A DNA stretch of 64,000 nucleotides from Candidatus Versatilivorator sp. (GCA_965207735.1 OZ242296.1:2784001-2848000); one strand, 5' to 3'. Shown: positions 23,935-43,495, numbered from the stretch's first letter. Translations and numbers: made by a program. Notes: generated from the sequence alone by a model not told the origin.

Positions 23935-24182
23935 GTCGGTACCGGGGAATCCATGTTGATGGTCGCTGCAAATCACGAAGGCGCGGGGGCGGGGGCCCGG
24001 CTTGTCTGAAACAAACGAAAAAAGACTAGAGAAAAAGAGGAATCCACGAAGACACACGAAGGACGACGAAGGGCCACTAAGGCGCTGAGGTTAACCGCGA
24101 CGGGGTACCAAGATCGCGAAGGGATGGTCGATTTCTGATTGTTTCACTCTCGGATGATCCGCCCGGCAGGGCGGGGGCCTCG

Positions 24183-25856
24183 CTTGCCTGAAACAACCCC
24201 GCAGTTCAAGCGGCTGCGATTTGTGGAACTAGGTTGAAACCAAGAGACTTAGCAGCATCTTTGAGGCCCGCGAGGCGGCGTCTCCGGAACCGGTCTTCGT
24301 AGCACGCTTCCCCGATGTCGATGTAGTCCTGGCCGTAGCGCAGCATGCGGTAGACGAGAACGGCCAGCCGGCGGGCCATGGAGAAGACGGCGACGGTCCA
24401 TCCCTTGTGGCGGGCCTTGCGACGGAAGGCGGCCCCCAGAGCGGTCTTGGAGTGCTTCAGAGAGACGGCTGCCATGCGCAGGACGGCGGCGGCGCGAGTA
24501 GACCCGGTGCTGTTGGCCTTCTTGTAGTGGAGCGGCTTGCCTGCGGAGACGGCCGTTTTTGGAGCCAGGCGCAGCCAGGATACAAAGTGCTTCTCCGAGG
24601 GGAAGGCCGTCAGGTCGAGGCCGGCCTCAGTCAGCAGGGTCAGGGCCGCTTCGGTGCCGATGCCGTCGATGCGCGTCAGATCGACCCCGGCAAAGCGCCA
24701 CAGTTCGGTGCGCAGGTGGTGCCCGCCTCGGCGGCTAATCGCCTTTTCCTTGATCGCATTGGGATGCTTCGGCACGGGCTGGTCGCGGCGCTCCACCGGT
24801 TGCAGCGCTTGGATTTCCTCCAGAATGCGGGCCTCATAGGCCGCAATCTCGCGTTGAGTCATGTCGTAGAGCTTCAGCGCCGACTTGAGGTTGAACAGAT
24901 GCTCGTCGCGCCAGTTGCCCGTGAGGTGCTCGGCAAACTCCCGGCTGGACTTCTTGCACCGTCGGTCCCGCAGACCCGCCAGACGGACCGGGTCCCGTTC
25001 GCCGTCGACAATCGCCCGCACGATCGCCATCCCCGTCTGACCGGTCAGATCGGTGACCGCACGATGGATCTGGACGTTCATCTGATCCAGCGCCTTCTGC
25101 ATCCACTGCACAAAGCGGGTACTCTCGGCCCCCAGAGTGCTCAGTTGCCGGTGCAGGGTCCGAACCCGGACGATCGCCTCGTGCGGACGGAAGGATCCCC
25201 GCAGCAAGCCGCAGCTGTGCAGCAACTGGATCCACTGGCAGTCCTGCATGTCGGTCTTGCGGCCCGGAACGTAGCGCAACTGCCGGGCGTTGACCAGCAG
25301 CACCTCGATGCCGCAGGACTCCAGCAGTTCGTAGAGGGGAATCCAATACACGTTGGTGCTCTCCATCGCCACCGACTCCACCCCTTGCTCCAGCAACCAG
25401 TCGGCCAGATGCTGCAACTGCGGCATGGTGGTGCCGAAGGTGCGCACGTTCGGCTTCCCTGGGGTTACCTCCGGAGCGCACACCCAGTGCTCCCGACTCC
25501 CCAGGTCGATCCCTGCCACCTCGGGGTGGATCCGCGACAAGGCCGTCGAACGGCTGCGCTTCTTCTTCGCCTTCGTGTTGACTTTCCTGCTCTTTTGCAT
25601 GAGATTGGCCTCCTCGAGAGCGAGGGCTCCGGCCCGAGTTGGCGTGGTCGTTCGGATTCTTGCCTTGAGGAGAACTTCCCGGGAAGCCTCACTAATGAAT
25701 GATGACCTGCTCGGACCCAGACTTGCCTTGGGGCACGGGGCACCAATGCTGAAACGGGGCGTAGCTGCCGGAGTCTCGCCAGGTGCTTATTCTTTCACAA
25801 TGAGCCGTTGTTTCACCCTCGAATGATCCGCCCCGTCGTGGGGGGCGGGGGCGGGA
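24183..25856 (-). mobile_element. IS110-family element, copy 1 (1674 bp)
   Basis: Near-identical to 34837-36510; boundaries set where the two copies diverge and at the duplicated TTGTTTCA.GCAAG junction. Confidence 0.88.
24206..25600 (-). CDS. IS110-family DEDD recombinase/transposase
   Basis: GIDLG, VAMEST, GRKTD..D, IDGIG, FPSEKHFVSWLRLAP, SAGK. Confidence 0.95.
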   Translation of the reverse strand: MQKSRKVNTKAKKKRSRSTALSRIHPEVAGIDLGSREHWVCAPEVTPGKPNVRTFGTTMPQLQHLADWLLEQGVESVAMESTNVYWIPLYELLESCGIEVLLVNARQLRYVPGRKTDMQDCQWIQLLHSCGLLRGSFRPHEAIVRVRTLHRQLSTLGAESTRFVQWMQKALDQMNVQIHRAVTDLTGQTGMAIVRAIVDGERDPVRLAGLRDRRCKKSSREFAEHLTGNWRDEHLFNLKSALKLYDMTQREIAAYEARILEEIQALQPVERRDQPVPKHPNAIKEKAISRRGGHHLRTELWRFAGVDLTRIDGIGTEAALTLLTEAGLDLTAFPSEKHFVSWLRLAPKTAVSAGKPLHYKKANSTGSTRAAAVLRMAAVSLKHSKTALGAAFRRKARHKGWTVAVFSMARRLAVLVYRMLRYGQDYIDIGEACYEDRFRRRRLAGLKDAAKSLGFNLVPQIAAA

Positions 25857-26202
25857 CTTGCTTGAAACAACCGAAAAATGACAAGAGACAAAAGAAAAAG
25901 ACTTATCCACGAAGGGGCACGAAGAACGACGAAGGGGCACTAAGGCGCTGAGGTTAACCGCGACGGGGTACCAAGTTCGCGAAGGGTTGGTCGATTTCTG
26001 ATTGTTTCACTCTATGTATGATCCGCACGGCAGGGCGGGGGCTCGGCTTGCCTGAAACAAACGACAGACAAAACGACAAAAGAAAAAGACTTATCCACGA
26101 AGGGGCACGAAGAACGACGAAGGGACACTAAGGCGCTGAGGTTAACCGCGACGGGATGCCAAGGTCGCGACGGGATAGTCGATTTCCGATTGTTTCACTC
26201 TC

Positions 26203-26540
26203 CAGCCTTTTGCAATATTCAGCAGCGGGACCTTTGCCGGGAATGGCCACAAAAGGCACAAAAAACACAAAAAAGAGCAGAACACTGAAAGGCTGCAAGG
26301 CGTTGACTCCCGAACATGTCGCACAAGTTCCGCGCTATCTGCCTACATCCGGTCAACGCGACGCCATGGGGATCAACCTCGGATCGTCAAGACTCGAAAT
26401 CAAGAAATTCGTTTTGTGACTTTTGTGCTTTTTGTGGTGAACTCTCATTTTTCACCAGGTCGCACCCGATATTGGAAAAGGCAGAAGATCACGTTTACCG
26501 GCAAAATGACCTGCCCCACTGCCAATATTGCAAAACGCTC
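26203..26540. mobile_element. MITE with TIRs related to the DDE element at 36668-38154
   Basis: CAGCCTTTTGCAATATT ... AATATTGCAAAACGCTC; interrupts a cassette end motif. Confidence 0.7.
26285..26419 (+). pseudogene. C-terminal relic of a GxxExxY-family gene
   Basis: LKGCKALTPEHVAQVPRYLPTSGQRDAMGINLGSSRLEIKKFVL fits the ELKA...H.AQ...YL...G...LINFG...LE.KR pattern; flanked by inverted CACAAAA repeats. Confidence 0.7.
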
Positions 26541-26869
26541 TTTCGTATGATGCGCCCGGCAGGGCAGGGTCTGGGCTCGCGGGCAAACGGGAGTTTCCCA
26601 AAGGGCGCCGGTCAGCGTTCAGAGAAGCCGCCCCCCGGATACGCTCCGGCGCACCATCGGGACCCCCCCGGAGCGCATTCTCCCCTAACGGCGTGACACC
26701 AACGTCACAATATTGCAGAAGCATTCGGGCGCCGCTCGTCATTGAAGGAGCTCCATCCGTATTCGTGTGTATTCGTGTTCATTCGTGGTTCGTCTTTAGT
26801 TCCAAAACGAAAACGGCTGGCTGTTTCTCCTCTGAATGATCCGCCCCGTCGCGGGGGGCGGGGGCGGGG

Positions 26870-27709
26870 CTAGCCTGGAGATGATCGAGGTTGCTTTGAG
26901 GGCGCATCGGTCCCGCTCGGCTGGAGGAATTGCAGCGGTTTGGTTTCCAAGATCAGTTTCATTTCCCGAGCCAACCGGTAGAAGTGGCGCAACCCGTCCA
27001 GGTTTTCCTCGTCCAGCGAGTAATCGATGCACCGGGTAAGGTAGGAGTGAATCTGCTCATCGGGCAGCCCGAGTTGGAGAGACTGCTGTTGGACGATGTC
27101 GTCCAGGTGGGCTTGCCCGTAGCGGTAGGATGCCTCGAAGGGGGAACTGTCCTCCATCCCGGTTTCCGCGCGGCAGGCCCAGAAGGCAAACACAAAGGGC
27201 TTACCGGTCTCCTCGCTCCATGCTTCCGACAGATCGCAGCGGTAGAGGCCGCCGGTATCGACGGTCAGGGCGGCGTCGCCTATCAGAAGCGCTGCGTCGC
27301 GGTGGCGCAACATGGAAGCCAGTTCCGGCTCATGGGAGTAAAGGGACGGATTGAGCTGAAACTTCATCCTGAGCAATATGCGGAGGAGGACCACCGAGGT
27401 CCTTGAGGATCGATCCAGGGCGACGCTCCTGATTTGGGGCAGCGGCACTTTGCTGACTAGCAGGACGCTTCGGACCGTTCCCTTGGCTGCCACTGAAAGG
27501 TTGGGGACGATTCTGAGTTCGGGGATGCGTTGGTATTCGATGGCCGGGATCAGGCCGATGTCCACCAATCCGGCTGCTATTTTGTCGGCGCACAGCGCAG
27601 GGGGAGAGAAGTCCAGATCAAAGCGGTCTTTCGGCCGGTTGTGGATAAAGCCCCAGGACAGCGGCAGCGCATTGAGGTAGCCGACGATTGAGAGCTTGAG
27701 TTTCCTCAC
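26870..27709 (-). CDS. mqnA: Chorismate dehydratase MqnA (futalosine menaquinone pathway)
   Basis: YLNALPL, VRSVLLVS, SSRTSV, LLIGDAAL, PFVFAFW. Confidence 0.9.
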   Translation of the reverse strand: MRKLKLSIVGYLNALPLSWGFIHNRPKDRFDLDFSPPALCADKIAAGLVDIGLIPAIEYQRIPELRIVPNLSVAAKGTVRSVLLVSKVPLPQIRSVALDRSSRTSVVLLRILLRMKFQLNPSLYSHEPELASMLRHRDAALLIGDAALTVDTGGLYRCDLSEAWSEETGKPFVFAFWACRAETGMEDSSPFEASYRYGQAHLDDIVQQQSLQLGLPDEQIHSYLTRCIDYSLDEENLDGLRHFYRLAREMKLILETKPLQFLQPSGTDAPSKQPRSSPG

Positions 27710-27769
27710 CCGCGCATTCTAGCTGCTTTCAGGAACCAGGGGAAGCAGCGTTCTTGAATGGGAAACGCG

Positions 27770-27883
27770 ATGAAAATCGTTGCCGCGGGGGACCCTGCAC
27801 CGAGGGGAGGTGGGAAGCAATCGGGCCGTCGGCACGGTTCCCATGGTGGCGGGACTCAAGGACGGAAGGATCCTGGCCATCTA
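27770..27883 (+). pseudogene. Frameshifted duplicate of the 5' end of the sialidase-like gene at 29812
   Basis: Aligns by eye with 29812-29924 (GTLH.GEVGSNRAVGT.PMV.GLKDGR.LA.Y) with a 1-bp insertion. Confidence 0.85.
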
Positions 27884-28225
27884 TAGCGTGGGTCCGAATG
27901 TTCACCTTCACGCCTGTGGTTTTTCGGTCACAATCGACTCAAGGAATCGCGTACTTCGTTAAGAGCAGGGCGATCCAAGTCCCGCCAATCAGCTTTCGTT
28001 GCTACTCCAAGCGAGTGCCCGGTTGGCAATTGTTGTCAATATCAGCTAAACTGTTGGTCCCTTGATCGGGCTCAGCCCGAAAGCGGCGATCAACAGGACC
28101 TCTGTTAGTAATCCTTCCAAGGTCTCGCCTCAACCTATCCCTCTTACCCTTCACTGTTGTCTGGGTCGGAAACTACGGCCCTGCCGTACAGGGTCTGCCT
28201 GTGCGCGTACGGCGGAGAAAAAATA

Positions 28226-29566: not shown

Positions 29567-29811
29567 CGATTCATCCGGCTCCCTCTTTCTCCTCCAAGCG
29601 TTTGCGAGCAATCGCTTCCTGCGTGGACCGGTTCTTGGGGAGACCCTCATTAACTGAGAATGCACTCTCGAAGTGGACGGTCCTTGGGGAAATTGGTCAC
29701 CTCCGCACCACGTTTTTGTGCCGCTCGGGATTGCTATTGCGTCTTCAGGGTGTTGCTGAGACACTAGCCCTGTGATGGACTATGAATGTTGGAAACCGCC
29801 GGAGGAACGCC

Positions 29812-30936: not shown

Positions 30937-31066
30937 GAATCGTCACCAGCGCCGGCGGGCGGAAGTGGCTCCAAGTAGGATGAAGGAATCATCTTGTCCA
31001 CAGTGGCACAGGGTAGACGAGTTGTCGACAAGGAGCTTATTGTAGAAAATAGCTATTGTAGCTATA

Positions 31067-31327
31067 ATGGCCCTAATGAGAGAAATTACTGCCAGAGACG
31101 CCAAGAATCGCTTCGGCCTTCTGCTCGACACCGCCCAGGGCGGGCCCGTGCGTGTGACCAAGAAAGGTAGAGCGGTTGGCGTGATGATGTCGATGCAGCA
31201 CTATGAACGGCTTCGTGGAGCTGCTTGGGAGCGTCTGACGGCAACGATGGACGCCTTGGGCCAACAAGCGTCCGCCAATGGCTTGACGGAATCCGGCCTC
31301 GAAACATTGCTGGCCGATGAAAGCTAA
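31067..31327 (+). CDS. Phd/YefM-family antitoxin
   Basis: ITARDAKNRFGLLLD...PVRVTKKGRAVGVMMS. Confidence 0.88.
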   Translation: MALMREITARDAKNRFGLLLDTAQGGPVRVTKKGRAVGVMMSMQHYERLRGAAWERLTATMDALGQQASANGLTESGLETLLADES

Positions 31328-31739: not shown

Positions 31740-31826
31740 CGGCTCTTGGGCACAACAGAGAACATGGGGGCGAGAGATATCGGCCATCGGACTTGCTTGT
31801 GGGCCCGCTTGTCCTGTTGAGAATCG

Positions 31827-32351: not shown

Positions 32352-32801
32352 GAAAATCCTCCTGGACGTCCCCCACACCCTGGCGGGCGGATCGTTCGAG
32401 GAAAAACACCCAATCGTCATTAAAGACGAACCACGAATGAACACGAATTCACTCGAATGCAGGTGGACTCACTCGAACGAGAAGCGGCTCCAAGATGCTT
32501 CTGCAACGCTGTTACCCTGATACCTATTGAACATGGATGCACAGGATGCACAGGATTTACAGGACGAGAGCTTCCTGCACCGGAAGCCAACTCGGGCGAT
32601 GATCCGGTGCGGATTTGCGGATTCCCGGCATTAGAAGCCAGCCGTTTCCTGAAGAATCCTGTGAATCCTGTGCATCGATGTTAATGATCTCCTTAAATCA
32701 CGATGGGGTCGGAAGCGCCCCCCACTGGCTCCGCCACAGTCCCTGTTGCTCCTTCGCGGACAAATCCTCTTTGTCCCTTGTGTCCTTCGTTGTCCTTCGT
32801 G

Positions 32802-34796
32802 GTAGAGTCGAGGGGAGGCGCGCCGGCCTTAGATCGAGGGAGTCGCTGTTGCCGGCGGCTTTCGCCACTCGCCGGTGCCTCAATCTCGTTCCTCGCTGCG
32901 TTTCCTCGCCCCCGCTCGTCAAACCGGACGTGCGGTTTTCCCGCATCCGGCTTTCAGTCAAGATCATGCCTTCGCCCTCGGAAGGCTCTGTGGCTTCGAC
33001 CCCAGGCAAGTGAGTCCATAGGTTTTCCATAGTCTCTCGTCCGAGAAGCGCACACTCCCCCCGGTCCTCACCTTGTGCTTCCGACAGAGCCACTGACGCA
33101 GCCGCCCGCCCGCGTGGCGGTCGATCGCTCGGTAGGCCGGGCTCACCTGCCCCAGAACGAAGTAGTTCGCCCACCCGGTCATCGCCCGGTTCAGGTGTTC
33201 TACCATCTGTCCTCGAAGCAGCGTCCCGTTCCTCGGCGCCGTCCACTCGCTGATCTTGCGGCAGATGCTCTGGACGCTCGCCTGGCTGGGTCGTGTGCCG
33301 ATGTAGGCTCCTTTCCCTTTGGGGCGATAGTTGCGTCCGATGCGATATCCCAGAAACCCCATCGGTTCCTCCGGACACCGCAAGCATCGGGTCTTCCGCT
33401 CGTTGACCGGTAGCTTCAGCTCCTCCATGATCCGCTTGACCGCCGTCAGCATCTCTGCCGCCGGTGCCCTGCCGAGTACACGGAAGTCATCCGCATAGTT
33501 GACGATCTCCGCACAGAAGCGCCGGGCATATCCCAGCACCTTCCAGCCCAAAACGAAGCGCCGCATGTAGAGATTGCTGAGCAACGGTGAGATCGGGGCT
33601 CCTTGCGGTGTCCCCTTCCGCTCCCGGCGCCCTCGGTTCCGGCGGCGTCTGCCACCCTTCCCGTCGTCCTCCTCCACCGGCATCTCCAGCCATGCCTTGA
33701 TGAGCTTGAGCATCCTCCCGTCACTCACGCGCCGGGCAATGCTTCGAATCAGCTCCGCATGCGGAATCTCGCCGAAGTAGTTGGACAGGTCGCCGTCAAC
33801 CACCTCCTGGTAACCCCTTTGCAGGAGTTCATGCACGCGTTTGACCGCGTCGTTGGCACTCCGCCCCCGCCGATAGCCATATTGCTCCGGTTGCAGGTCC
33901 GCTTCGAAGATCGGCTCCAACACCAGCAAAGCCGCCGTCTGCGCTACCCGGTCCCGTATGCAGGGTATGCCCAAAGGCCGGAACTTGCCGGGCTGTTTCT
34001 TCGGGATCAGCACCTGCCGCACCGGCTTCGGTACGTAGGTTCCTTCCCTCAGGTCCCGCGCCAGTTCCCCCAGCCAGCCCTCCACCCCATACGCCTCGAT
34101 GTCCTTGAAGCCCTCCCCGTCCACCCCGGCCGACCCGCCGTTTCGGCGTACCTGTGCCCAGGCTTCCTTCAGAAAGTCCTCTCGCCACACCTTGTCCGAC
34201 AGCGCATGAAACCGCCGCTTGGGGTCCTCCTTCGCTTTCGCATGTAGCATGGTCTGGAATTTCCGAACCCCCTCTGACCCTGTTAGACTCTTGTCAGTGG
34301 CCACGCCTTGCCTCCTTTCCATGCTGCTCTCAACTCAGGGTCCCTTCCCTCCACCGGCGTTACCCGGCTTCTCCGGTACTACCGACCCATCCGCCACCCT
34401 GACGGCCCGGCCTGCCCCTCGCGGGGTCCCGGTTGATGTGTGCCGCATCTCCCCCAGGGCTTCCCGTGTTGCTGCCTTCTTCCCCTTCCATGCGTGCCAG
34501 CGTCACTACCCCGACGGAAGCGGATCGGTGCCCGCGTCGCTCTCTTCCCCATCCGCCAACGGCCTTCCCCTAAAGACAGGAGGGTCGGCTTCCGTATTGT
34601 CCGTTTCGAGGCCTGCTCGACGTTCACTCGCGTTCCGGCCCGCATGCTCGCTGAGCCGCCCTTGGCGGCCCTTGACCCCAGAGTGCTTCAGACCATTTCG
34701 TTACCTCCATGATCCGCCCTGGCTGCTACCAACCGGAGCGACAGTTGTTGGGCGGGGTTCGCACCCGCCAGAAGAAGGCGCCTTTCCACGGCGCAC
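32802..34796 (-). mobile_element. Group II intron (~2.0 kb)
   Basis: 5' GTGCG at 34796; domain V GAAAGCCGGATGCGGGAAAACCGCACGTCCGGTTT; 3' end ...CTCTAC at 32802; removal restores CCACGAAGACA|CACGAAGGA. Confidence 0.92.
32964..34322 (-). CDS. ltrA: Group II intron reverse transcriptase/maturase, no endonuclease domain
   Basis: RPLGIP..RDRVAQ, GTPQGAPISPLLSNLY, YADD, domain X GWANYF. Confidence 0.95.
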   Translation of the reverse strand: MERRQGVATDKSLTGSEGVRKFQTMLHAKAKEDPKRRFHALSDKVWREDFLKEAWAQVRRNGGSAGVDGEGFKDIEAYGVEGWLGELARDLREGTYVPKPVRQVLIPKKQPGKFRPLGIPCIRDRVAQTAALLVLEPIFEADLQPEQYGYRRGRSANDAVKRVHELLQRGYQEVVDGDLSNYFGEIPHAELIRSIARRVSDGRMLKLIKAWLEMPVEEDDGKGGRRRRNRGRRERKGTPQGAPISPLLSNLYMRRFVLGWKVLGYARRFCAEIVNYADDFRVLGRAPAAEMLTAVKRIMEELKLPVNERKTRCLRCPEEPMGFLGYRIGRNYRPKGKGAYIGTRPSQASVQSICRKISEWTAPRNGTLLRGQMVEHLNRAMTGWANYFVLGQVSPAYRAIDRHAGGRLRQWLCRKHKVRTGGSVRFSDERLWKTYGLTCLGSKPQSLPRAKA

Positions 34797-34885
34797 TGTC
34801 TTCGTGGATCACTCTTTTTCGGTTGTTTCAGGCAAGTCCCGCCCCCGCCCCCCACGACGGGGCGGATCATTCGAGGGTGAAACAA

Positions 34886-35085
34886 CGGATCATTGTGAAA
34901 GAATAAGCACCTGGCGAGACTCCGGCAGCTACGCCCCGTTTCAGCATTGGTGCCCCGTGCCCCAAGGCAAGTCTGGGTCCGAGCAGGTCATCATTCATTA
35001 GTGAGGCTTCCCGGGAAGTTCTCCTCAAGGCAAGAATCCGAACGACCACGCCAACTCGGGCCGGAGCCCTCGCTCTCGAGGAGGC
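34886..35085 (+). ncRNA. Candidate IS110 bridge RNA region (5' non-coding end; second copy at about 25608-25807 on the minus strand)
   Basis: ~200-nt non-coding segment upstream of the recombinase with hairpins and short matches to the junction; IS110 elements are known to encode bridge RNAs in a non-coding end; boundaries inferred. Confidence 0.5.
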
Positions 35086-35092
35086 CAATCTC

Positions 35093-36487
35093 ATGCAAAA
35101 GAGCAGGAAAGTCAACACGAAGGCGAAGAAGAAGCGCAGCCGTTCGACGGCCTTGTCGCGGATCCACCCCGAGGTGGCAGGGATCGACCTGGGGAGTCGG
35201 GAGCACTGGGTGTGCGCTCCGGAGGTAACCCCAGGGAAGCCGAACGTGCGCACCTTCGGCACCACCATGCCGCAGTTGCAGCATCTGGCCGACTGGTTGC
35301 TGGAACAAGGGGTGGAGTCGGTGGCGATGGAGAGCACCAACGTGTATTGGATTCCCCTCTACGAACTGCTGGAGTCCTGCGGCATCGAGGTGCTGCTGGT
35401 CAACGCCCGGCAGTTGCGCTACGTTCCGGGCCGCAAGACCGACATGCGGGACTGCCAGTGGATCCAGTTGCTGCACAGCTGCGGCTTGCTGCGGGGATCC
35501 TTCCGTCCGCACGAGGCGATCGTCCGGGTTCGGACCCTGCACCGGCAACTGAGCACTCTGGGGGCCGAGAGTACCCGCTTTGTGCAGTGGATGCAGAAGG
35601 CGCTGGATCAGATGAACGTCCAGATCCATCGTGCGGTCACCGATCTGACCGGTCAGACGGGGATGGCGATCGTGCGGGCGATTGTCGACGGCGAACGGGA
35701 CCCGGTCCGTCTGGCGGGTCTGCGGGACCGACGGTGCAAGAAGTCCAGCCGGGAGTTTGCCGAGCACCTCACGGGCAACTGGCGCGACGAGCATCTGTTC
35801 AACCTCAAGTCGGCGCTGAAGCTCTACGACATGACTCAACGCGAGATTGCGGCCTATGAGGCCCGCATTCTGGAGGAAATCCAAGCGCTGCAACCGGTGG
35901 AGCGCCGCGACCAGCCCGTGCCGAAGCATCCCAATGCGATCAAGGAAAAGGCGATTAGCCGCCGAGGCGGGCACCACCTGCGCACCGAACTGTGGCGCTT
36001 TGCCGGGGTCGATCTGACGCGCATCGACGGCATCGGCACCGAAGCGGCCCTGACCCTGCTGACTGAGGCCGGCCTCGACCTGACGGCCTTCCCCTCGGAG
36101 AAGCACTTTGTATCCTGGCTGCGCCTGGCTCCAAAAACGGCCGTCTCCGCAGGCAAGCCGCTCCACTACAAGAAGGCCAACAGCACCGGGTCTACTCGCG
36201 CCGCCGCCGTCCTGCGCATGGCAGCCGTCTCTCTGAAGCACTCCAAGACCGCTCTGGGGGCCGCCTTCCGTCGCAAGGCCCGCCACAAGGGATGGACCGT
36301 CGCCGTCTTCTCCATGGCCCGCCGGCTGGCCGTTCTCGTCTACCGCATGCTGCGCTACGGCCAGGACTACATCGACATCGGGGAAGCGTGCTACGAAGAC
36401 CGGTTCCGGAGACGCCGCCTCGCGGGCCTCAAAGATGCTGCTAAGTCTCTTGGTTTCAACCTAGTTCCACAAATCGCAGCCGCTTGA
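35093..36487 (+). CDS. IS110-family DEDD recombinase/transposase
   Basis: Same protein as copy 1 apart from KTDMR vs KTDMQ. Confidence 0.95.
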   Translation: MQKSRKVNTKAKKKRSRSTALSRIHPEVAGIDLGSREHWVCAPEVTPGKPNVRTFGTTMPQLQHLADWLLEQGVESVAMESTNVYWIPLYELLESCGIEVLLVNARQLRYVPGRKTDMRDCQWIQLLHSCGLLRGSFRPHEAIVRVRTLHRQLSTLGAESTRFVQWMQKALDQMNVQIHRAVTDLTGQTGMAIVRAIVDGERDPVRLAGLRDRRCKKSSREFAEHLTGNWRDEHLFNLKSALKLYDMTQREIAAYEARILEEIQALQPVERRDQPVPKHPNAIKEKAISRRGGHHLRTELWRFAGVDLTRIDGIGTEAALTLLTEAGLDLTAFPSEKHFVSWLRLAPKTAVSAGKPLHYKKANSTGSTRAAAVLRMAAVSLKHSKTALGAAFRRKARHKGWTVAVFSMARRLAVLVYRMLRYGQDYIDIGEACYEDRFRRRRLAGLKDAAKSLGFNLVPQIAAA

Positions 36488-36667
36488 ACTGCGGGGTTGT
36501 TTCAGGCAAGCCGAGCCCCCGCCCTGGTGTGCGGATCATACATAGAGTGAAACAATCGGAAATCGATCAACCCTTCGCGAACATTGGTACCCCGTCGCGA
36601 CCAACCTCAGCGCCTTAGTGCCCCTTCGTCGTTCTTCGTGCCCCTTCGTGGATTTCTTTGTTCTTTT

Positions 36668-38154
36668 GAGCCTTTTGCAAAATTCGCAGATAGCGGGAAT
36701 TTTCACGTGGGGAAAGATCAAGGAGGGCAGGTGGAAGGAGGGGCAAGACCACTGTCTGTTGTATCATGAAGGTGTCTGAACCACATGATGAACGGAGGTG
36801 GAACTTGCCCCTTAGGGAAACCCTATCACGACACTGGTTCCGGTTTCAACGAGAGCTGTTTCCCCTGCTGGAGGAAGTTTTGGGGCCTCTGGGAGAGCGT
36901 TACCAGCGGCTGGTGCAGGTATTGGAGTTGGTGCGGGTGGAGGAGTTGCTGCCTTACAGTCGGGGCTGGCGTGGCCGGCCGCTGGAGGATCGGGCAGTGC
37001 TGGCGCGAGCCTATCTGGCGAAGTCGATGCTGGAGGTGGCGACCACGCGGGGATTGGTGGAGCGGCTGAGGAGTGAGGGGAGGCTGCGGCGGCTGTGCGG
37101 CTGGGAGAGGGCGTGGGAGGTACCGAGCGAGTCGACCTTCTCGCGGGCCTTTGCGGAATTCGCTGAGAGCGACCTGCCGGGGCGTTTGCACGAGGCATTG
37201 CTGGAGGAGACGCTGAAGGGCCACTTGGCGGGGCATGTGTCGAGGGACTCGACGGCGATTGCGGGACGGGAAAAGCCAGCGGCCAAGGCTGCGCCGGAGG
37301 CCAAGCGGAAACGCCGGCGGGGCCGGCCGCCGAAGGGCGAGCGACGGCCCAAGCGGTTGAGCCGGCTGGAGCGGCAGGGGTCGATGACGCTGGAGGAAAT
37401 GTTGAAGGAGTTGCCCAAGGCCTGCGACATCGGCGTCAAGCGCAACGCCAAGGGGCATCAGGAGAGCTGGACCGGCTACAAGCTACACCTCGACGCCATT
37501 GACGGCGGGATTCCGGTCAGTTGTCTGCTGACCTCGGCCTCGGTGCATGACTCTCAGGCAGCCATTCCGCTGGCGACGCTGACGGCAAGGCGGGTCGAGA
37601 GTCTCTACGACTTGATGGACAGCGCCTACGATGCGCCGGAGATCCGGGCCTTCAGTGAGAAGCTGGGGCATGTGCCGATTATTGACGTCAACCCCCGCCG
37701 AAGAGCTACCTTGAAAGCCGAGCGGAAGCGGGAGGCACTGGCCCGGCGCTGTATCGGCCAAGTGACTCCCGAGGCGCGGCGCTACCGGGAACGCTCGACG
37801 GTGGAGCGGGTCAACGGACGGCTCAAGGAGGAGTTTGGCGGGAGGCAGGTGAGGGTTCGCGGCCCCGACAAGGTGAGGTGCCACCTGATGTTCGGCATTC
37901 TGGCCCTGACGGTGGATCAGTTGATGCGCCTGACGCTCTGAAGACCGGGTTGCCACCCCCAACCGCACAGCAGGTTCGCCCGCCTCAAGGCCGGGAGAGG
38001 GTAAGCTGTGCCTGCGTCCGGCGACCGCTGGCCATCCGGCCATCAGATTCGGGCTTTTTCCTTCAAAAGGGTCTTTGCAGCTGGGTAGTCACCGCCGGAA
38101 CATCACTGTTGCCAGCCCAATGTCATGCCCGATTCCGAATTTTGCAAAAGGCTC
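36668..38154 (+). mobile_element. DDE insertion sequence (IS4/IS5/IS1182-like)
   Basis: 19-bp TIRs GAGCCTTTTGCAAAATTCG at 36668-36686 and 38136-38154; no target duplication visible. Confidence 0.88.
36766..37941 (+). CDS. DDE transposase
   Basis: PSESTFSR, RDSTAI, GYKLH, MDSAYD, YRERSTVERVNGRLK. Confidence 0.92.
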   Translation: MKVSEPHDERRWNLPLRETLSRHWFRFQRELFPLLEEVLGPLGERYQRLVQVLELVRVEELLPYSRGWRGRPLEDRAVLARAYLAKSMLEVATTRGLVERLRSEGRLRRLCGWERAWEVPSESTFSRAFAEFAESDLPGRLHEALLEETLKGHLAGHVSRDSTAIAGREKPAAKAAPEAKRKRRRGRPPKGERRPKRLSRLERQGSMTLEEMLKELPKACDIGVKRNAKGHQESWTGYKLHLDAIDGGIPVSCLLTSASVHDSQAAIPLATLTARRVESLYDLMDSAYDAPEIRAFSEKLGHVPIIDVNPRRRATLKAERKREALARRCIGQVTPEARRYRERSTVERVNGRLKEEFGGRQVRVRGPDKVRCHLMFGILALTVDQLMRLTL

Positions 38155-38199
38155 GTAATGAAAATGTAGGCCTCCGTTGGATAAGACGTGGCCAGTCTG

Positions 38200-39290
38200 G
38201 TCGAACAGGTCCGAGCGGGCATAGGCCGCCTCGACCCGGTTTCGGACCACATGCGCCAGGGCCGCCTCGATCACCTCCCGGGAATGATCCGTCTCTTCGG
38301 CCGCCCATTCCCGGAAGCTGGATCTAGACCCGTGCGGCACCGCTGCAATCCCCTGCTCGCGGACCAGCCACCGCAGCTCCTTGTCACTGAGCGGCTTCCC
38401 GCTCCCATGGGTGAACACCAGCGGACCGGCTCCCCCCTCCAGTGACTGCGCCGCTTCGAGAATCTCCAGGGCTCGCCCACACAGCGGCACCCGATGCTTC
38501 CGGTTCGCCTTCATCCGACTGGCCGGGACGGTCCATACACCAGCGTCCCGATCGATCTCCTCCCACTCGGCCCAGCGCACCTCACTCCACCTGGCCGCCG
38601 TCAGCACCAGAAACTCGAAGGCCAGCTTCGCGGCCGGCAGCGCCTCCGATCCCCGCACCGTCCGGATCGCCGCAGCCACCTCCCGATGGGGCAAGGCCTG
38701 CATGTGCTCGGCAACGTCATGCTGGGGACCCAGGACCGGGCCGATCCGGTCGCAGGGGTTGTCGATTCTGTACTGCATGGCTACGGCCCATTCCAGGACC
38801 GCCCGCAGGCGTTGGCGCACCCGCCGGGCGCTGGAGGCCTTCCGGTGCCAGATAGGGGTGAGGATGTCAAGCAGATCGGCGCTGGTGACCTCTGAGACCG
38901 GCATCTTGCCGATGCGGGGGAAGGCGAACCGCCTCAGGCTGGACAGCCACTCGCGGTGGTGACGCCGGCCGCGCCAGCCGTCCCGCTTCTGTTCCAGCAC
39001 ACGCAAGGCGGCTTCGGCGAAGGTGGGGATGCCCTCGGCGCGGCGTTTCTCGGCAGGGGGGTCTCCACCCTCACGAGCGAGCTTGCGGTTAGCCAGCGCT
39101 TTCTCCCGGGCCTCGGCCAGGGAGACCAGGGCGACGCTGCCGAGTCCGAGCTCCCGGCGACGGCCACGGACGACGAGGCGTTGAATCCAACTGCGGGTTC
39201 CGCCGGGCTGGACGAAGAGGTACAATCCGTTTCCATCGGCGTGTCTTCCGGGCGGAGCGGAGCGGAGGAAGGCGGCCGAGAGGGCGTTGC
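38200..39290 (-). pseudogene. P4-like tyrosine integrase with arm-binding domain, apparently truncated at both ends
   Basis: ADGNGLYL, RELGLGS, LTAARWSE, HRVPL, HGSRSSFR, LAH, AAYARSDL; no plausible start codon and sequence diverges right after SDLF. Confidence 0.75.
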
Positions 39291-39489
39291 GGCGGCGGCA
39301 GCAATCTTTCCTGGAGTTCAATCTTAGGCAGGCGCGGGTGCGCCCGGCACAGTCTGTACCGTGATGGATCGCCCAAAAAGCGTTGCAACGTACTGAAGAC
39401 AAATATTTTGCCAGCTGAGGTCCCACTCCCTGGTGAGTAATGCGGCCAACTGCAGCAGCCCAGGAAAACTGGCGGCACGCAACGGGAGA

Positions 39490-39514
39490 GGATGCGGGCG
39501 GGACGCCCGCATCC
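39490..39514. repeat. REP-like hairpin
   Basis: GGATGCGGGCGGGACGCCCGCATCC, 11-bp stem. Confidence 0.55.
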
Positions 39515-39705
39515 CGGGGGATGCCAGCCCGCCGGTTGGAGGTGTCTGGCGGGCGACTTCTCATAAACCCGGCACGCACCCTGCCGGGTCCGGAAGGCTT
39601 GACGGGTTGTCGACCGAAGCTTTAGCCTTGATTTCCCGGTTGTATGTCGCCGGAAAACGCTGATCATTCAAGTTTCCCGGACGGGTTGGCGCGACCTGGA
39701 ATGCC

Positions 39706-40386
39706 TTGACCATGAAGCCCAATCTGATCGTTGGCGTCGGCGGGGGCACGGGCTCCGGCAAGACCACGCTCTCCCTGAAACTGGCGGAGTTCCTGGGACC
39801 GGAGCGGGTGCTGATTCTCTCTCAGGACCACTACTACCGGGACGCCGGCCGTCTCCCCGCCGAGCAACGGGCCCGACAGAACTTCGATCGGCCGGAAGCG
39901 GTGGATTTCGAGTTGCTGGTCCGGCATCTGAAGCAACTGCAAGCGGGCCTGGCAATTGCCCGCCCAGTTTACGATTTCAGACAGCACCTTCGCCTGGAGG
40001 CCACGGAGCCGGCCCTTCCCCTCCCGGTCATTCTGGTGGAGGGGACGCTGGTCTTCGCGTCAGAGGAGCTGGTCGGCTGTTTCGACCTCAAGCTCTTTGT
40101 GGATGCGGATCCCGACATCCGCTTCATCCGCCGCCTGAAGCGCGACATGCGGGAACGCGGACGGAGCGTGGAATCGATCGTCCACCAGTACCTGCAGACG
40201 GTGCGGCCCATGCATCTGCGTTTTGTCGAGCCGGCGCGGCGGCATGCCGATATGGTGATCTCCGGGGTGGACGGAATCGAGCAGCAGGTTGCCGCGGTGG
40301 GAGCACAGATCAGGAAGGCAGCAATAACAAAAAGATATCCACGAAGGGGCACCAAGGACCACGAAGGGACACGAAGAAAGACTTAA
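39706..40386 (+). CDS. udk: Uridine kinase
   Basis: GGGTGSGKTT, QDHYY, NFDRP, RRLKRD..ERGR, VRPMH; the last ~16 codons derive from a CACGAAG repeat. Confidence 0.93.
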   Translation: MTMKPNLIVGVGGGTGSGKTTLSLKLAEFLGPERVLILSQDHYYRDAGRLPAEQRARQNFDRPEAVDFELLVRHLKQLQAGLAIARPVYDFRQHLRLEATEPALPLPVILVEGTLVFASEELVGCFDLKLFVDADPDIRFIRRLKRDMRERGRSVESIVHQYLQTVRPMHLRFVEPARRHADMVISGVDGIEQQVAAVGAQIRKAAITKRYPRRGTKDHEGTRRKT

Positions 40387-40501
40387 CGACAATGAGGCTC
40401 TGAGCCACCAAGCGGTGCCGCCGCGTCCCTCAAAACCCAGCGGTTTAGTGGAATGCGTTGTGCGCATCGTTGCCACTCCAAGAATCTCTATTTAACGTCT
40501 G

Positions 40502-40881
40502 GAACCTTTTGCAATATTCCGCAGGCAAAAACTTTATGGTCGGGAGAGGGGACAGGGAATTCGAGGGGGAGGTCCGCTCTGTGCCTGAATGGCCACAAGA
40601 GGCACAAAAGCTGGAATCAGCAGGTCTCAAATCTCATGGAGGAACCAGGGTTCACAGAACGCGGCTCTCCGTCGAACGGCCACAAAAGGCACAAACGCGG
40701 GATTGGGCAAGACTGGAGCCTTATTTTGTGACTTTTGTGCTTTTTGTGGTTGAGCCGTTTACCCCATTGGCTGGACAGCGGGAACTTTCCGGGGAGAAGC
40801 CAGGGGAGAGGTCACTGACGGGGCAAGTCCGCTCTCTGTTGTCTCATGGAAACGCTCGATTCCGAATTTCGCAAAAGGCTG
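40502..40881 (+). mobile_element. 380-bp MITE derived from the 36668-38154 IS family
   Basis: TIRs GAACCTTTTGCAATATTC / GAATTTCGCAAAAGGCTG; 5-bp duplication GTCTG at 40497-40501 and 40882-40886; interior resembles the IS left end. Confidence 0.85.
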
Positions 40882-40970
40882 GTCTGTTCCGGGAATATTT
40901 TAAAAATTTCGAGAACCGATTTGTCCTGCTCGTAGTGAGCAATCCAGGGTAGGGGAAGGAGGCCAGGTTC

Positions 40971-41567
40971 GTGAGAGTCGACATCATGCAAACGGGTTTG
41001 GAGTACGACGGCTTCATCCGGATTGAGAGGGCCGACCTCGCTTTCGAGAAGTTCAGTGGGGAGATGAGCGGCGCCGTCCGGCGTTACCGCTACCACCGAG
41101 GGGATGTGGCGGCGGTGATGATTTACGACGCGGGTCAAGATCGGGTGCTGTTGATCCGCCAGTTCCGTTTTGCGGTGCACGCCCGCACCGGAAATGGCTG
41201 GGTAACGGAGTGCGTGGCGGGAATCCAGGAGAAAGGGGAGTCCATCGAGGCCGTGGCTCGCCGGGAGGTCATGGAGGAGACCGGGCTCGAGCTGGCGGGG
41301 CTGGAGTTGCTGGCCGAGTATTTCTTCAGTCCCGGTGGCTGCTCCGACAAGATTCATCTGTTCCTGGGCACCCTGGAGGATCCGGAGCGGTCCCTGGGAG
41401 TTCACGGCGTCGCGCAGGAAGACGAGGACATTCAGGCCTGCTGGGTGCCCTTGAGCCAGGCTCTGGAAATGGCCCGCGCCAGGCAGATCCAGGACGCCAA
41501 GACGCTTATCGGGCTCCACATGCTGGAGAGTCGACTCCACCGCGAAACGAGGGCGGATGGACCGTGA
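40971..41567 (+). CDS. NUDIX hydrolase (ADP-ribose pyrophosphatase-like)
   Basis: Nudix box G.....E....ARREVMEETG; SPGG; IQDAKT. Confidence 0.9.
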   Translation: MRVDIMQTGLEYDGFIRIERADLAFEKFSGEMSGAVRRYRYHRGDVAAVMIYDAGQDRVLLIRQFRFAVHARTGNGWVTECVAGIQEKGESIEAVARREVMEETGLELAGLELLAEYFFSPGGCSDKIHLFLGTLEDPERSLGVHGVAQEDEDIQACWVPLSQALEMARARQIQDAKTLIGLHMLESRLHRETRADGP

Positions 41568-41630
41568 GCGCTACGGCTCAGCCGACTTCCCGCCCCACTC
41601 GACGCGAGGGCTCATTCGGGGGGGGAAGGC

Positions 41631-41820
41631 AAGTGGAGAGTGAAGAGTTGTCATTGGAGGGTTCCGGGAACACGCAAGCGCCTTGTGACGTGGTTGCACT
41701 ATTCATGCGGCTGCGCCAAGATCAACACGATGCTCAACGTGTTGATTCTCTCCACTCTCCACTCCCCACTCCCCACTCCCCACTCTCCACTCTCCACTCT
41801 TCACTCTCCACTCTTCACTT
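41631..41820. repeat. Inverted 7-mer tandem repeats (CACTC(T/C)C) bracketing ~100 bp
   Basis: About ten units at 41747-41820 and the complementary AAGTGGAGAGTGAAGAGT at 41631-41648. Confidence 0.85.
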
Positions 41821-42496
41821 GTTCGACCCCCACCTTGCGGCAATGGGGCTCCAGCGAGCACAGTTCGCACTGGGGACTGCGGGCGCTGCAGATCCGCCGG
41901 CCGTGGTGGATGAGGCGGTGAGAGAAGTTGATCCATTCCCTGGAGGGGATGAGGGCCATGAGGTCCTGCTCGACCTTCTCCGGGGTTCTCGCCAGGGTCA
42001 GGCCGAGTCGCCGGGAAATCCGAAACACGTGGGTGTCGACCACCACCCCCGAGGCCACCCCGTAGGCCGTACCGAGCACGACGTTCGCCGTTTTCCGGGC
42101 CACTCCGGGGAGTTCCAGCAGCTCCTGCATGGATCGAGGCACCTGCCCGTTGTGCTGCTTCACCAGCCGCCGGCAGGTCTCCCGGATGTTTTTGGCCTTG
42201 TTGCGGAAGAATCCGGTGGAATGAATCATCCCTTCCAGGGTCTTCAGGGAGGCGCCGGCAAAGGCTTCCGCCGTCGGGTACTTGCGAAAGAGCTCCGGCG
42301 TCACCAGGTTGACTCTCTTGTCGGTGCACTGGGCCGAAAGGATGGTCGCGATCAGCAGTTGCAGGGGCGTGGCATGCGTCAGGGCGCACTCGACCTCCGG
42401 ATAGGCCCTCTTCAAGCCCGCCAGAATGCCGTTGACTTGTCTCTTGCCGACTTGTTCGGCTGCCTCACGGAGATTGGAACGCGACATGGGTTGCAT
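41801..42496 (-). CDS. nth: Endonuclease III
   Basis: LSAQCTDKRVN, HhH LPGVARKTANV, VDTHV, C..RSPQCELC.L...C Fe-S motif. Confidence 0.96.
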   Translation of the reverse strand: MQPMSRSNLREAAEQVGKRQVNGILAGLKRAYPEVECALTHATPLQLLIATILSAQCTDKRVNLVTPELFRKYPTAEAFAGASLKTLEGMIHSTGFFRNKAKNIRETCRRLVKQHNGQVPRSMQELLELPGVARKTANVVLGTAYGVASGVVVDTHVFRISRRLGLTLARTPEKVEQDLMALIPSREWINFSHRLIHHGRRICSARSPQCELCSLEPHCRKVGVEQVKSGE

Positions 42497-42563
42497 TTTA
42501 AAAGAGTTACCCACGAAGGACCACGAAGAAAAACAAGGTGGGAATGAGGTTCTTTGCCACCAG

Positions 42564-43495
42564 GTCGGGCTTCCGCCCTACCGTGTGGATCATTCGGGAA
42601 AAAACGGTCGATCGCTAATGAAGACGAACCACGAATGAACACGAACATACACGAATACAGATGAACTTCCTTCAACGACATGCGACACCAAAATGCTTCT
42701 GCAATTTCGTTACTTTGGCATCACTTCGTGTCCTTCGTAGATTACCTCCTCGATATCGGTTATCACTCCCAGTTAACAACTCATCATTCCGTCAATTGGT
42801 GTTCATTCGCGTATATTCGTGGTTCGTTGTGCCGCTTCGTGGATAACTCTCTTTTCTGTTGTTTCAGACAAGTGGGGCCCCTGCCCTGACGGGCAGATCA
42901 TCCGAGGGTGAAACAGGGTTGTTTCAGACAAGTCCGGCCCCCGCCGTGCCGTGCGGATCATTCAGAGGAGAAACAGCCAGCTGTTTGCGTTTTGGAAAGA
43001 GACAGGATTAATAGGACCAGAGGCCGCTGCACGGGACGCTGACTGGGAATCGGGGCGTTGGGCACGGCCAAGGCCCGTCACGGGGAAGATCAATCGAGAA
43101 GGACTAAGAATTGAACATGGATGCACAGGATGCACAGGAATTACAGGACGAGAGCTTCCTGCACCAGAAGCCAACTCGGGCGAAGATCCGGTGCGGACTT
43201 GCGGATTCCCGGCATTAGAAGCCATCCGTTTCCTGAAGAATCCTGTGCATCGATGTTAATGATCTCTTTAAATCACGATGGGGTCGGAAGCCCCCCCACT
43301 GGCTCCGCCGCGGTCCATGTTGCTTCTTCGCGGACAAATCCTCTTTGTCCCTTGTGTCCTTCGTTGACCCCCTTGCCGACCTTCGCCCCATCCCTCTTGG
43401 GCCTTCTCCAGCGCCTTGGTGTCCCTTCGTCGTTCTTCGTGCCCCTTCGTGGAAATGTCTTTTTCTTTTGTCTTTTTTCGTTTGTTTCAGACAAG
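42564..43495 (+). repeat. Array C: three cassettes with IS110-like ends and no recombinase (42564-42872, 42873-42932, 42933-43495)
   Basis: TTGTTTCAGACAAG at 42859, 42919 and 43482; each cassette opens with a GC-rich tract then G(C/T)(G/A)GATCAT...GAAAC or AAAAC. Confidence 0.8.

Follow-up and report, generated by a model that had tools for sequence, protein, structure and literature searches.

IS-A and the arrays in the window

The window analyzed here, the whole stretch of 64,000 nucleotides from the acidobacterium Candidatus Versatilivorator sp. (GCA_965207735.1 OZ242296.1:2784001-2848000; positions are counted from its first nucleotide), contains two of the 10 genomic copies of a 1,674-bp IS110-family element, which we named IS-A, as well as three arrays (A, B, and C) of transposase-less units of 60, 182, 190, 294, 309, 529, and 563 bp, hereafter mini-elements. 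Each unit starts with the left-end hairpin of IS-A and ends with its right-end 14-mer TTGTTTCAGRCAAG, except the 294-bp unit, which lacks the 14-mer. The first-pass annotation had given matching sizes (with about 300 bp for the 294- and 309-bp units and 530-563 bp for the longest) and had described head-to-tail units at three intergenic loci, with full IS110 elements in some slots; indeed, IS-A copies 1 and 2 sit among the units of arrays A and B. The features are as follows.

24001..24182, minus strand: 182-bp mini-element, last slot of array A (161-200-bp class; 99.5% identical to a copy at another locus)
24183..25856, minus strand: IS-A copy 1 (transposase ORF 24206-25600; boundaries from the 10 genomic copies; 99.8% identical to copy 2)
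25857..26046, minus strand: 190-bp mini-element, array A, directly upstream of IS-A copy 1
26047..26575, minus strand: 529-bp mini-element, array A, from a 6-copy family
26576..26869, minus strand: 294-bp mini-element, first slot of array A (head variant; ends in ...GCGAG)
34823..34836, plus strand: right-end 14-mer of the element behind which IS-A copy 2 landed (element start near 32368)
34837..36510, plus strand: IS-A copy 2 (non-coding left arm 34837-35092; transposase ORF 35093-36487; right end 36488-36510)
34837..34884, plus strand: left-end head, common to the mini-elements (GC hairpin, GATCAT, then TGAAACAA)
36497..36510, plus strand: right-end 14-mer TTGTTTCAGGCAAG of IS-A copy 2
36511..36667, plus strand: 182-type mini-element behind IS-A copy 2, array B, cut in its T-rich spacer by IS-C
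42564..42872, plus strand: 309-bp mini-element, first slot of array C
42873..42932, plus strand: 60-bp minimal element, array C, a 46-base head fused to the 14-mer (45-70-bp class)
42933..43495, plus strand: 563-bp mini-element, last slot of array C, from a 15-copy family; unique DNA follows its 14-mer

Both IS-A ORFs (464 aa) matched PF01548 (E 1e-21) and PF02371 (E 2e-12) in Pfam, corresponding to an N-terminal DEDD (RuvC-like) and a C-terminal Tnp domain, and two further genomic copies are 100% identical to copy 2. The arms are asymmetric: 256 bases precede the ATG on the left, and the stop codon is followed by 23 bases up to the right end. The common start (the GC hairpin followed by GGATCATTCGAGGGTGAAACAA) and common terminus (TTGTTTCAGGCAAG) that had been noted for the two copies were confirmed, at 25856-24183 on the minus strand and 34837-36510 on the plus strand. 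Terminal inverted repeats are absent; a short subterminal one is formed by TGAAACAA in the head and TTGTTTCA in the right end, which co-vary from lineage to lineage. The dinucleotide AG terminates the left flank and the right end alike in 15/15 aligned lineages, and we infer that it is the crossover point.

At ≤2 mismatches the 14-mer occurs nine times in the window, for a chance expectation of 0.37, and 0/100 shuffles reached that number. A local alignment of IS-A with the 182-bp consensus covered 44 bases of the left end and 16 of the right end. Overall, what the elements have in common amounts to about 44-48 bases at the hairpin-bearing left end and 14-16 bases at the right end. Of the six right-end/left-end joints listed earlier, those at 26047, 42859, and 42919 are complete. 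The right end is present at 24001, where only 14 bases of hairpin start precede other DNA, and at 43482, where the array ends and unique DNA follows; the joint at 26576 is degenerate, its left element ending in ...GCGAG without the 14-mer.

None of the six array ORFs reached the Pfam cut-off, and the opposite-strand ORF of the 529-bp mini-element gave only a sub-threshold PDDEXK_3 match. In array A, the 294-bp mini-element begins directly after the TAG stop of a menaquinone-synthesis gene (26870-27709). Array B, the third locus, has two other mobile elements nested inside its units: a group II intron (32802-34798), which splits the element in front of IS-A copy 2, and IS-C (36668-38155), a DDE element unrelated to IS-A. 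The integrase at 38089-39579 is of the phage type with an arm-binding domain.

Mini-elements across the genome and the genus

Genome-wide, the 14-mer was found 201 times exactly, 268 times at ≤1 mismatch, and 359 times at ≤2 mismatches, against 14 matches for the reversed pattern used as control. We counted 318 heads and 239 complete left-end-to-right-end elements, including 153 of 161-200 bp, 19 of 45-70 bp, 32 of 301-650 bp, and the 10 IS-A copies. As the first-pass annotation had anticipated, the joints are clustered and co-oriented: 121/127 pairs of 14-mer neighbours within 700 bp share one orientation (102/102 at ≤1 mismatch). Among 222 distinct joints, one pair of the head hairpin shows C-G to T-A compensation (167 C-G, 26 T-A, and 15 T-G). 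An integron is not supported: the arrays lie at 85 multi-joint loci without an apparent platform, and their cassettes are non-coding by Pfam (0/6 ORFs). "Integron-like", as the arrays had been called, is a loose analogy only.

Neither the 14-mer nor the GC-hairpin segment is merely part of a target; both are parts of the IS itself, since unique DNA follows IS-A's own 14-mer in 7/10 copies and the left end is the same in 10/10. No copy was found with ends that exclude these segments, the observation that the first-pass annotation had set against its own proposal. Furthermore, the head is kept in relatives that are 60-98% identical and come from acidobacteria of other orders and from other phyla. 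The left flank of IS-A consists of a mini-element's T-rich spacer and 14-mer in all 10 genomic copies.

The mini-elements behave as discrete non-autonomous elements, as had been proposed. Two pairs of units are 100% identical with different flanks on both sides, several 99% pairs likewise, and the identity stops exactly at the left-end start and the right-end end. For 141 of 150 units of the 182-bp type, the closest relative lies at another locus. The 160 heads without a preceding 14-mer have G at -1 in 115 cases and A at -2 in 107, while the right flanks of 149 array ends have C at +1 in 82 and C at +2 in 95, a CC(R)(R)G preference resembling the left-end start.

Orthologous loci also differ between species. 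The site of array A is empty in relative G004, holds one unit in G002, and carries four mini-elements plus IS-A in the genome of the window (G000), and the site of array C has neither 14-mer nor head in G013 or G004. G002 carries IS-A and a 140-bp mini-element exactly at the AG of a joint left unoccupied in G000. Read by eye, this mini-element still has a stretch of about 60 bases that looks like the right end of IS-A together with the gene end, as would be expected of a deletion derivative. The short-read contigs break at the repeats.

Units are genus-wide, being present in 12/13 congeners, and were found in 0/27 genomes outside the genus. With our query, an IS-A-type transposase was detected in only five of the 12 unit-bearing relatives. 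Relative G009, complete in a single contig, gave no PF01548 match and no IS-A match. Its units nevertheless have intact ends, and in a sample of 19 the closest pairs reach 99.4% identity; G011 gave one divergent IS110 match only. The units of G009, in a genome without an IS110 transposase, count against IS-A as the mobiliser.

Predicted guides and the proposed growth of arrays

The non-coding left arm of IS-A contains three segments that co-vary with, or match, its ends or flanks.

34964..34973, plus strand: predicted left target guide, AAGGCAAG plus TC, co-varying with the hexamer left of the insertion point
34990..34997, plus strand: segment ATCATTCA, which co-varies, in the same sense, with left-end DNA 34865-34872 (33 shared 6-mers at the alignment column)
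35027..35034, plus strand: predicted left donor guide, AAGGCAAG, matching the last hexamer of IS-A's own right end

Across relatives the predicted left target guide tracks the left-flank hexamer through at least seven different hexamers; within G000 it is exact in five of the 10 copies and one base off in the other five. The predicted left donor guide equals the right-end hexamer in 10/10 G000 copies and at 29/31 loci of relatives, with five different hexamers, and in two G000 copies both the right-end hexamer and this guide read GACAAG. The two left guides of IS-A are the same or differ by one base, suggesting that the right end is itself a target and that each insertion recreates one. This likeness of donor and target, together with the CC(R)(R)G preference at array ends, agrees with the earlier proposal that insertion regenerates a site. 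Of that overall interpretation, the ends, the donor/target likeness, and the discrete units were retained, and the integron-likeness was not.

Guide identity accompanies tandem copies. G013 has a head-to-tail IS-A dimer, and a second lineage, in which both guides read GGTCAG, has tandem IS copies at 2/2 loci. A sister clade in G008 and G013 with unlike guides (GGTCAG vs GACAAG) sits in CAGTGGTCAG-type repeats instead.

Several observations count against our main reading. A k-mer scan for right-side guides detected none, lacking any clean signal in the reverse complement, and the sole strong right-donor signal was same-sense. One co-varying left-arm segment has a sense contrary to the IS621 rule. 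Predicted folding of the left arm was no better than that of shuffled sequences (z -0.11), no Rfam family matched, and no sigma-70-like promoter was seen. Moreover, a target equal to the donor next to the core would be a handicap under the IS621 handshake rule.

Taken together, we consider it likely that the arrays are head-to-tail stacks of IS-A and about 230 transposase-less mini-elements with its two ends, built by serial insertion behind an existing right end via the predicted bridge RNA, as the guide AAGRCAAG is predicted to be the same for the left side of the target and for IS-A's own right end. The recombinase and its bridge RNA would excise or copy an element as a right-end/left-end joint, which would be recombined at the AG after any ...RCAAG, preferably one with CC next. 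Mini-elements, having the same donor ends, would be served in trans, so that the IS-A recombinase may both mobilise and shuffle the units. Each insertion would leave a new right end, by which arrays could grow and take a full IS into a slot. To enter a naive site for the first time, an element would need to match only a few bases on the left (..RYAAG), in line with published "half-match" activity. The units are most simply selfish DNA, with room left for a host function.

Three other explanations were weighed. It is unlikely, although the best placed of the three, that the units are kept for a benefit to the host and that their mobility is secondary; they might encode a small RNA, act as a signal in transcription, or serve as a landing pad sparing genes. 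Across the 153 copies of the 182-bp unit, conservation is ≥90% in most alignment columns, and such conservation along the whole unit could mean selection for a host function. Units also persist in genomes without the IS, and three unrelated mobile elements land in them: IS-A, IS-C (13/43 copies), and the group II intron (about 10/15 copies). Against this, no RNA family matched, no promoter or terminator pattern was positive, and presence at the same locus varies between species, which argues against a fixed local role. A host benefit would be compatible with serial insertion rather than exclusive of it.

Somewhat less probable is that the units are host REP/BIME-like repeats, spread by a RAYT-type enzyme, gene conversion, or recombination, which IS-A only targets, its ends being captured halves of the target. 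The joint is palindromic, as in REP, IS110 elements are known to target REPs (PMC12288879; reference list of PMC11208160), and the 12 unit-bearing congeners include genomes without IS-A. However, unit ends coincide exactly with IS ends, the IS clade has the head and the GTTTC...AG right end as intrinsic features also in distant hosts, the units being found in none of 27 genomes outside the genus, and the internal guide co-varies with the right-end hexamer. A REP/REPIN-RAYT system was rejected, as the single Y1-transposase match was weak (PF01797, 29.9 bits) with no 14-mer or head within 5 kb, and neighbours are co-oriented (121/127 pairs) rather than inverted doublets. Finally, it is very improbable that arrays owe most of their growth to tandem duplication in place, through slippage or unequal crossing-over at repeated joints, although tandem duplication has been reported at IS110 loci (10.64898/2026.08.14.744561): only 9/150 units have their closest relative within 1 kb, such as the pair at 2570754/2570938 (97.2%), against 141 with it elsewhere, and unrelated families (60, 182, 294, 529, and 563 bp plus the full IS) are mixed in arrays in one orientation.

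Within serial insertion behind a right end, we tentatively propose a self-homing bridge RNA, whose target and donor loops would read the same left half-site. Each insertion would then make the next docking site, and ends-only and cargo-bearing mini-elements would grow as concatemers throughout the genome and genus, the arrays outliving the recombinase and offering at least three unrelated mobile elements a shared place to land safely. If so, the system must evade the handshake rule, under which IS621 is blocked once the guide pairs with its cognate DNA.

Comparison with known systems

In IS621, the 5' guide of the left arm matches target-left plus core and the second guide donor-left plus core (PMC11208160), and strand exchange is blocked if the handshake positions pair with the cognate DNA (PMC11208158). 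Like IS621 as described in these papers, IS-A has a DEDD and Tnp recombinase, two predicted left-arm guides, a short subterminal inverted repeat, and a core dinucleotide common to donor and target. It differs in its core (AG, not CT), in the equality of target-left and donor-left, and in the extra segment co-varying with left-end DNA that lies about 28 bases from the core, across the GC hairpin.

The enzyme integrating at dRS3, the short repeat of the Neisserial intergenic mosaic elements (NIMEs), is IS110-like. NIMEs are composed of dRS3 repeats and RS units: short non-coding units form arrays of 200-2700 bp between genes, and the 20-bp inverted repeat at their boundaries is also where a mobile element integrates (PMC3898611). 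Their sequences are unrelated to the units described here. With REP, BIME, and REPIN sequences, the units have in common that they are abundant, palindromic, intergenic, clustered, and used as IS targets; unlike those with RAYT, they have no RAYT association, are co-oriented instead of in inverted pairs, and end as an IS110 element does.

Closer parallels exist within the IS110 family. In Pseudomonas putida KT2440, MITEPpu9 (the ssr9 module) is a transposase-less module between the left- and right-end boxes of ISPpu9, recombining at an invariant AG; its eight copies carry an sRNA gene, some copies occur unlinked to the IS and some in tandem, and the ISPpu9 transposase was proposed to act in trans (PMC12288879). 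Circles were shown by PCR, the target is a host REP, and a GC palindrome is found both close to the left end of the IS and in the right half of the target (PMC12288879). The mini-elements likewise lack a transposase, match both ends of their parent IS, have the same core and a GC palindrome, and occur unlinked to the IS and in tandem. In contrast, they are known from sequence alone, fall into several families with about 230 members in total, the smallest being just the two ends in 60 bp, and would prefer as target the element's own right end instead of a host REP, which would explain why arrays form.

Hu et al. described tandem non-coding units beside IS110 transposases (n=468) and tandem whole modules (n=437), with unit boundaries that retain left-donor matches (bioRxiv 10.64898/2026.08.14.744561), and one-sided bridge RNA matches were reported to suffice for "half-match" recombination (10.64898/2026.08.31.748434). 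Unlike the loci that Hu et al. describe, most arrays here have no IS copy nearby, both donor halves are retained at unit boundaries, and the two left guides coincide, so that a usable left half-site would be regenerated each time. The units and IS-A represent, on a large scale, a variant of hitch-hiking DNA of a kind known before, from MITEPpu9 and ISPpu9 and in the 2026 preprint on tandem non-coding units beside IS110.

IS-A and its tandem arrays

Two copies of IS-A, an IS110-family element, lie in the window at 25856-24183 (minus) and 34837-36510 (plus), together with three arrays, that is, head-to-tail stacks of transposase-less units that have the two ends of IS-A.

24206-25600, minus: IS-A transposase ORF 1, 464 aa, DEDD_Tnp_IS110 and Transposase_20 domains
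35093-36487, plus: IS-A transposase ORF 2, 464 aa, DEDD_Tnp_IS110 and Transposase_20 domains
26869 down to 24001, minus: array A, in order 294-, 529- and 190-bp elements, IS-A and a 182-bp element
Array B, plus: IS-A, preceded by an element that a group II intron splits and followed by a 182-type unit that another IS interrupts
42564-43495, plus: array C, elements of 309, 60 and 563 bp

Tandem arrays of units bounded by IS110 ends, as proposed in the first-pass annotation, were confirmed in the window, and the same was true genome-wide. Of the six joints (right end abutting left end) it had listed, three are full; of the remaining three, one is an array end, one a right end that has just 14 head bases, and one a degenerate joint. 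The 14-mer right-end sequence occurs nine times in the window at ≤2 mismatches, for a chance expectation of 0.37, and none of 100 shuffles reached nine. The 60-bp form consists of the head (the left-end hairpin segment) and the 14-mer, i.e., both ends without anything else. An ORF inside the 529-bp element (26156-26419, plus), possibly a relic gene, gave a sub-threshold PD-(D/E)XK_3 match (19 bits versus a cut-off of 22).

To define the ends of IS-A, we compared its 10 genomic copies. Four copies, which carry a 12-base insert, measure 1,685 bp; the element is otherwise 1,674 bp long. Its left end comprises a GC hairpin followed by GGATCATTCGAGGGTGAAACAA, and its right end terminates in ...CTGCGGGGTTGTTTCAGRCAAG. 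A T-rich spacer and a further TTGTTTCAGRCAAG were present to the left of all 10 copies, and unique DNA followed IS-A's own 14-mer on the right in seven of them. These flanks indicate that the 14-mer is part of the right end and the hairpin segment part of the left end, as had been supposed; no copy had ends that excluded either. The left arm did not fold better than shuffled sequences (z -0.11, single-sequence fold), and no structure is proposed. Neither the arrays nor the left arm matched an Rfam family (whole window at the gathering threshold; 34700-36750 at the E-value threshold), and scanning the joint and the left arm with the sigma-70 consensus returned no sites.

Genome-wide distribution and origin of the units

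In the 5.26-Mb genome, the 14-mer was found 201 times exactly and 359 times at ≤2 mismatches, compared with 14 for a reversed control pattern. The matches form 198 loci, 85 of which hold more than one, with spacing modes of 181-184 bp, 60-68 bp, about 340 bp and 1,673-1,685 bp. A profile search identified 318 copies of the head. Pairing each head with the next right end gave 239 complete elements, including the size classes 161-200 bp (n = 153), 45-70 bp (n = 19) and 301-650 bp (n = 32) as well as 10 IS-A; this pairing also yields composite elements containing a nested IS or intron. Neighboring 14-mers at most 700 bp apart were co-oriented in 121 of 127 pairs (102/102 at ≤1 mismatch). A link to REP/RAYT systems was rejected given this co-orientation and a single weak Y1 match without repeats nearby. 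Much of what appears as mosaic intergenic repeats in this genus can probably be annotated as IS110 derivatives rather than REP-type host repeats.

Several other mobile elements were found in or beside the arrays, and a pair of RNA matches lies further along the window.

32802-34798, minus: group II intron, with a reverse-transcriptase/maturase ORF at 32964-34322
36668-38155, plus: IS-C, a 1,488-bp DDE element with terminal inverted repeats (PF01609 and PF05598)
38089-39579, minus: phage-type tyrosine integrase with an arm-binding domain, adjoining IS-C
63149-63194 (plus) and 63345-63390 (minus): a pair of oppositely oriented Acido-Lenti-1 RNA matches separated by 150 bp

The group II intron has 15 near-full genomic copies, approximately 10 of them at one fixed position in mini-element tails, just 5' of CTTCGTGGAT. 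IS-C is present in 43 copies (identity ≥99.9%, 3-bp duplications), 13 of which sit inside mini-elements, mostly within the T-rich spacer. An IS-C copy plus a unit measures about 1,673 bp and mimics the spacing of IS-A. The segment with the tyrosine integrase is multi-copy in relatives. A conserved left flank, at one stage taken for a second IS ("IS-B"), is instead where members of a non-coding element family (~320-390 bp) end.

The units could have arisen through serial insertion or local duplication. For 141 of 150 units the closest relative was at another locus, and two pairs of units were 100% identical with different flanks on both sides, their identity ending at the start of the left end and the end of the right end. 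Both observations favor insertion, and this comparison of sequences argues for serial insertion rather than local duplication as the probable origin of the units. Even the 160 heads lacking a preceding 14-mer follow an AG-like flank (G at -1 in 115/160, A at -2 in 107/160), counts in which many flanks are themselves repeats and the events are not independent. A full head is missing from the DNA behind 149 14-mers that have a unit tail in front of them. At these array ends, C is found at +1 in 82/149 and at +2 in 95/149, as at the start of the left end, suggesting that the right half of the target also tends toward donor likeness. A second RCAA[GT] pentamer stands immediately after 16 of the 149 array ends (0.44 expected), for example at G000:C1:62808, 163557 and 758907; a register slip as the cause of this doubling was not supported at the left junction of the last element.

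When the 182-bp consensus was aligned with IS-A, the alignment covered 44 left-end and 16 right-end bases. Derivation of the interior from the IS-A left arm was rejected, the local score of 19 not being significant relative to shuffles (15 ± 2.1, maximum 29). The 182-bp unit is strongly conserved over its full length, and a host role is for that reason conceivable. For covariation in the joint, an all-column scan was too permissive and only the single C-G/T-A pair was relied on.

Of 13 other genomes from the genus, 12 contain the unit, whereas all 27 genomes examined from outside the genus lack it. Relatives of IS-A came from records titled Terriglobia bacterium or Candidatus Versatilivorator sp. 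At the site of array A, which holds four mini-elements and IS-A in the genome with the window (G000), there is almost nothing between the two genes in G004, a partial, inverted unit in G013, and in G002 one 182-type unit beginning after the same ...CTAG stop codon. The array C site, with three elements in G000, is without 14-mer or head in G013 and G004. In G002, a copy of IS-A with a 140-bp mini-element behind it occupies the precise AG of a solo joint that is empty in G000. In the complete genome G009, no IS110-type transposase was found; the units there keep intact ends, with nearest-neighbor identity of up to 99.4% (19 units sampled). Either the IS was lost recently from G009, or another agent maintains or moves its units.

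Predicted bridge-RNA guides and array formation

The non-coding left arm was aligned across IS-A and 14 relatives (59-98% protein identity), and two variable segments stood out amid conserved blocks. The first corresponds to the six bases on the left side of the insertion point, with at least seven different hexamers represented; in G000, the match was exact in 5/10 copies and one base off in 5/10. The second is identical to the hexamer that closes the element's own right end in 10/10 G000 copies, including two where both read GACAAG instead of GGCAAG, and in 29/31 loci of relatives, which involve five different hexamers. Like the left target and left donor guides of IS621, defined by having the same sense as the left flank and core (PMC11208160), the two segments are same-sense with these regions, and we refer to them as the predicted first and second guides.

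In close relatives of IS-A, as in IS-A itself, the two guides agree at every position or at all but one (GGCAAG or GACAAG). With coinciding guides, a right end would be a left half-target. Each insertion would leave a fresh right end, hence the next left half-target, and arrays would form. Three observations fit this rule. G013 contains a head-to-tail dimer of IS-A. IS110 relatives in two records titled Candidatus Marinacidobacterales (L060 and L056; 59-66% identity), in which both guides read GGTCAG, have head-to-tail tandem copies at 2/2 loci. Finally, the guides differ from each other (GGTCAG versus GACAAG) in a sister clade present in G008 and G013, whose copies lie within CAGTGGTCAG-type repeats rather than behind right ends. 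One pair of the tandem copies in L060/L056 is just 76.5% alike. Short GAGTGG / CAGTGGTCAG tandem repeats, the type into which the sister clade inserts (first guide GGTCAG), also adjoin mini-element heads (G000:C1:2081600-2082120 and 1024600-1025050; L042-L050).

Right-side guides were looked for in IS-A and its relatives and not found. A segment of the bridge-RNA region (34990-34997) has the same sense as, and co-varies across relatives with, left-end DNA beyond the GC hairpin (34865-34872), a relation that does not fit the IS621 right-guide rule. One-sided "half-match" activity has been published (10.64898/2026.08.31.748434), and the otherwise unrelated right flanks of seven of the 10 IS-A copies fit such activity, for which they offer natural evidence. 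In IS621, handshake positions that pair with cognate DNA are described as blocking strand exchange (PMC11208158). Target and donor of IS-A are identical beside the core, raising the question of what lets strand exchange go ahead if the handshake positions do not distinguish the two. The IS-A recombinase would probably move the units, perhaps through circles; the units of G009, the lack of recognizable right-side guides and the handshake rule speak against it. In sequencing runs X19-X22, short-read contigs broke at repeats, and joints were confounded by other copies.

IS-A would be a natural example of a bridge recombinase with coinciding target and donor specificities, giving a simple rule for head-to-tail IS110 arrays that is testable through one guide. 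The units would also define a minimal natural donor of 46 left-end and 14 right-end bases.

Comparison with known systems

Our literature search, which covered articles without their supplements, returned neither an IS110 element with coinciding left target and donor guides nor this acidobacterial family. The nearest known case is MITEPpu9 with ISPpu9, in which a transposase-less module lies between the IS end boxes, recombines at AG and forms module-only circles; it has eight copies, some in tandem (PMC12288879). Beside IS110 transposases, a 2026 preprint recorded tandem arrangements of non-coding units (n = 468) and of whole modules (n = 437), and the unit boundaries there show left-donor matches (10.64898/2026.08.14.744561). 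The present system differs from the cases described there in the predicted coincidence of its two left guides, its scale, the number of element families and the presence of arrays far from any IS. A looser analog of the arrays is offered by neisserial NIMEs (PMC3898611). The mechanism first put forward for this region was largely right, but its description as "integron-like" was overstated and fails, since the cassettes are without genes by Pfam (none of six array ORFs at a cut-off) and no platform was seen at the arrays. The system is a large-scale case of an IS110 element with MITE-like derivatives, a kind already known, of which the guide-identity explanation and the handshake question are the most interesting aspects.
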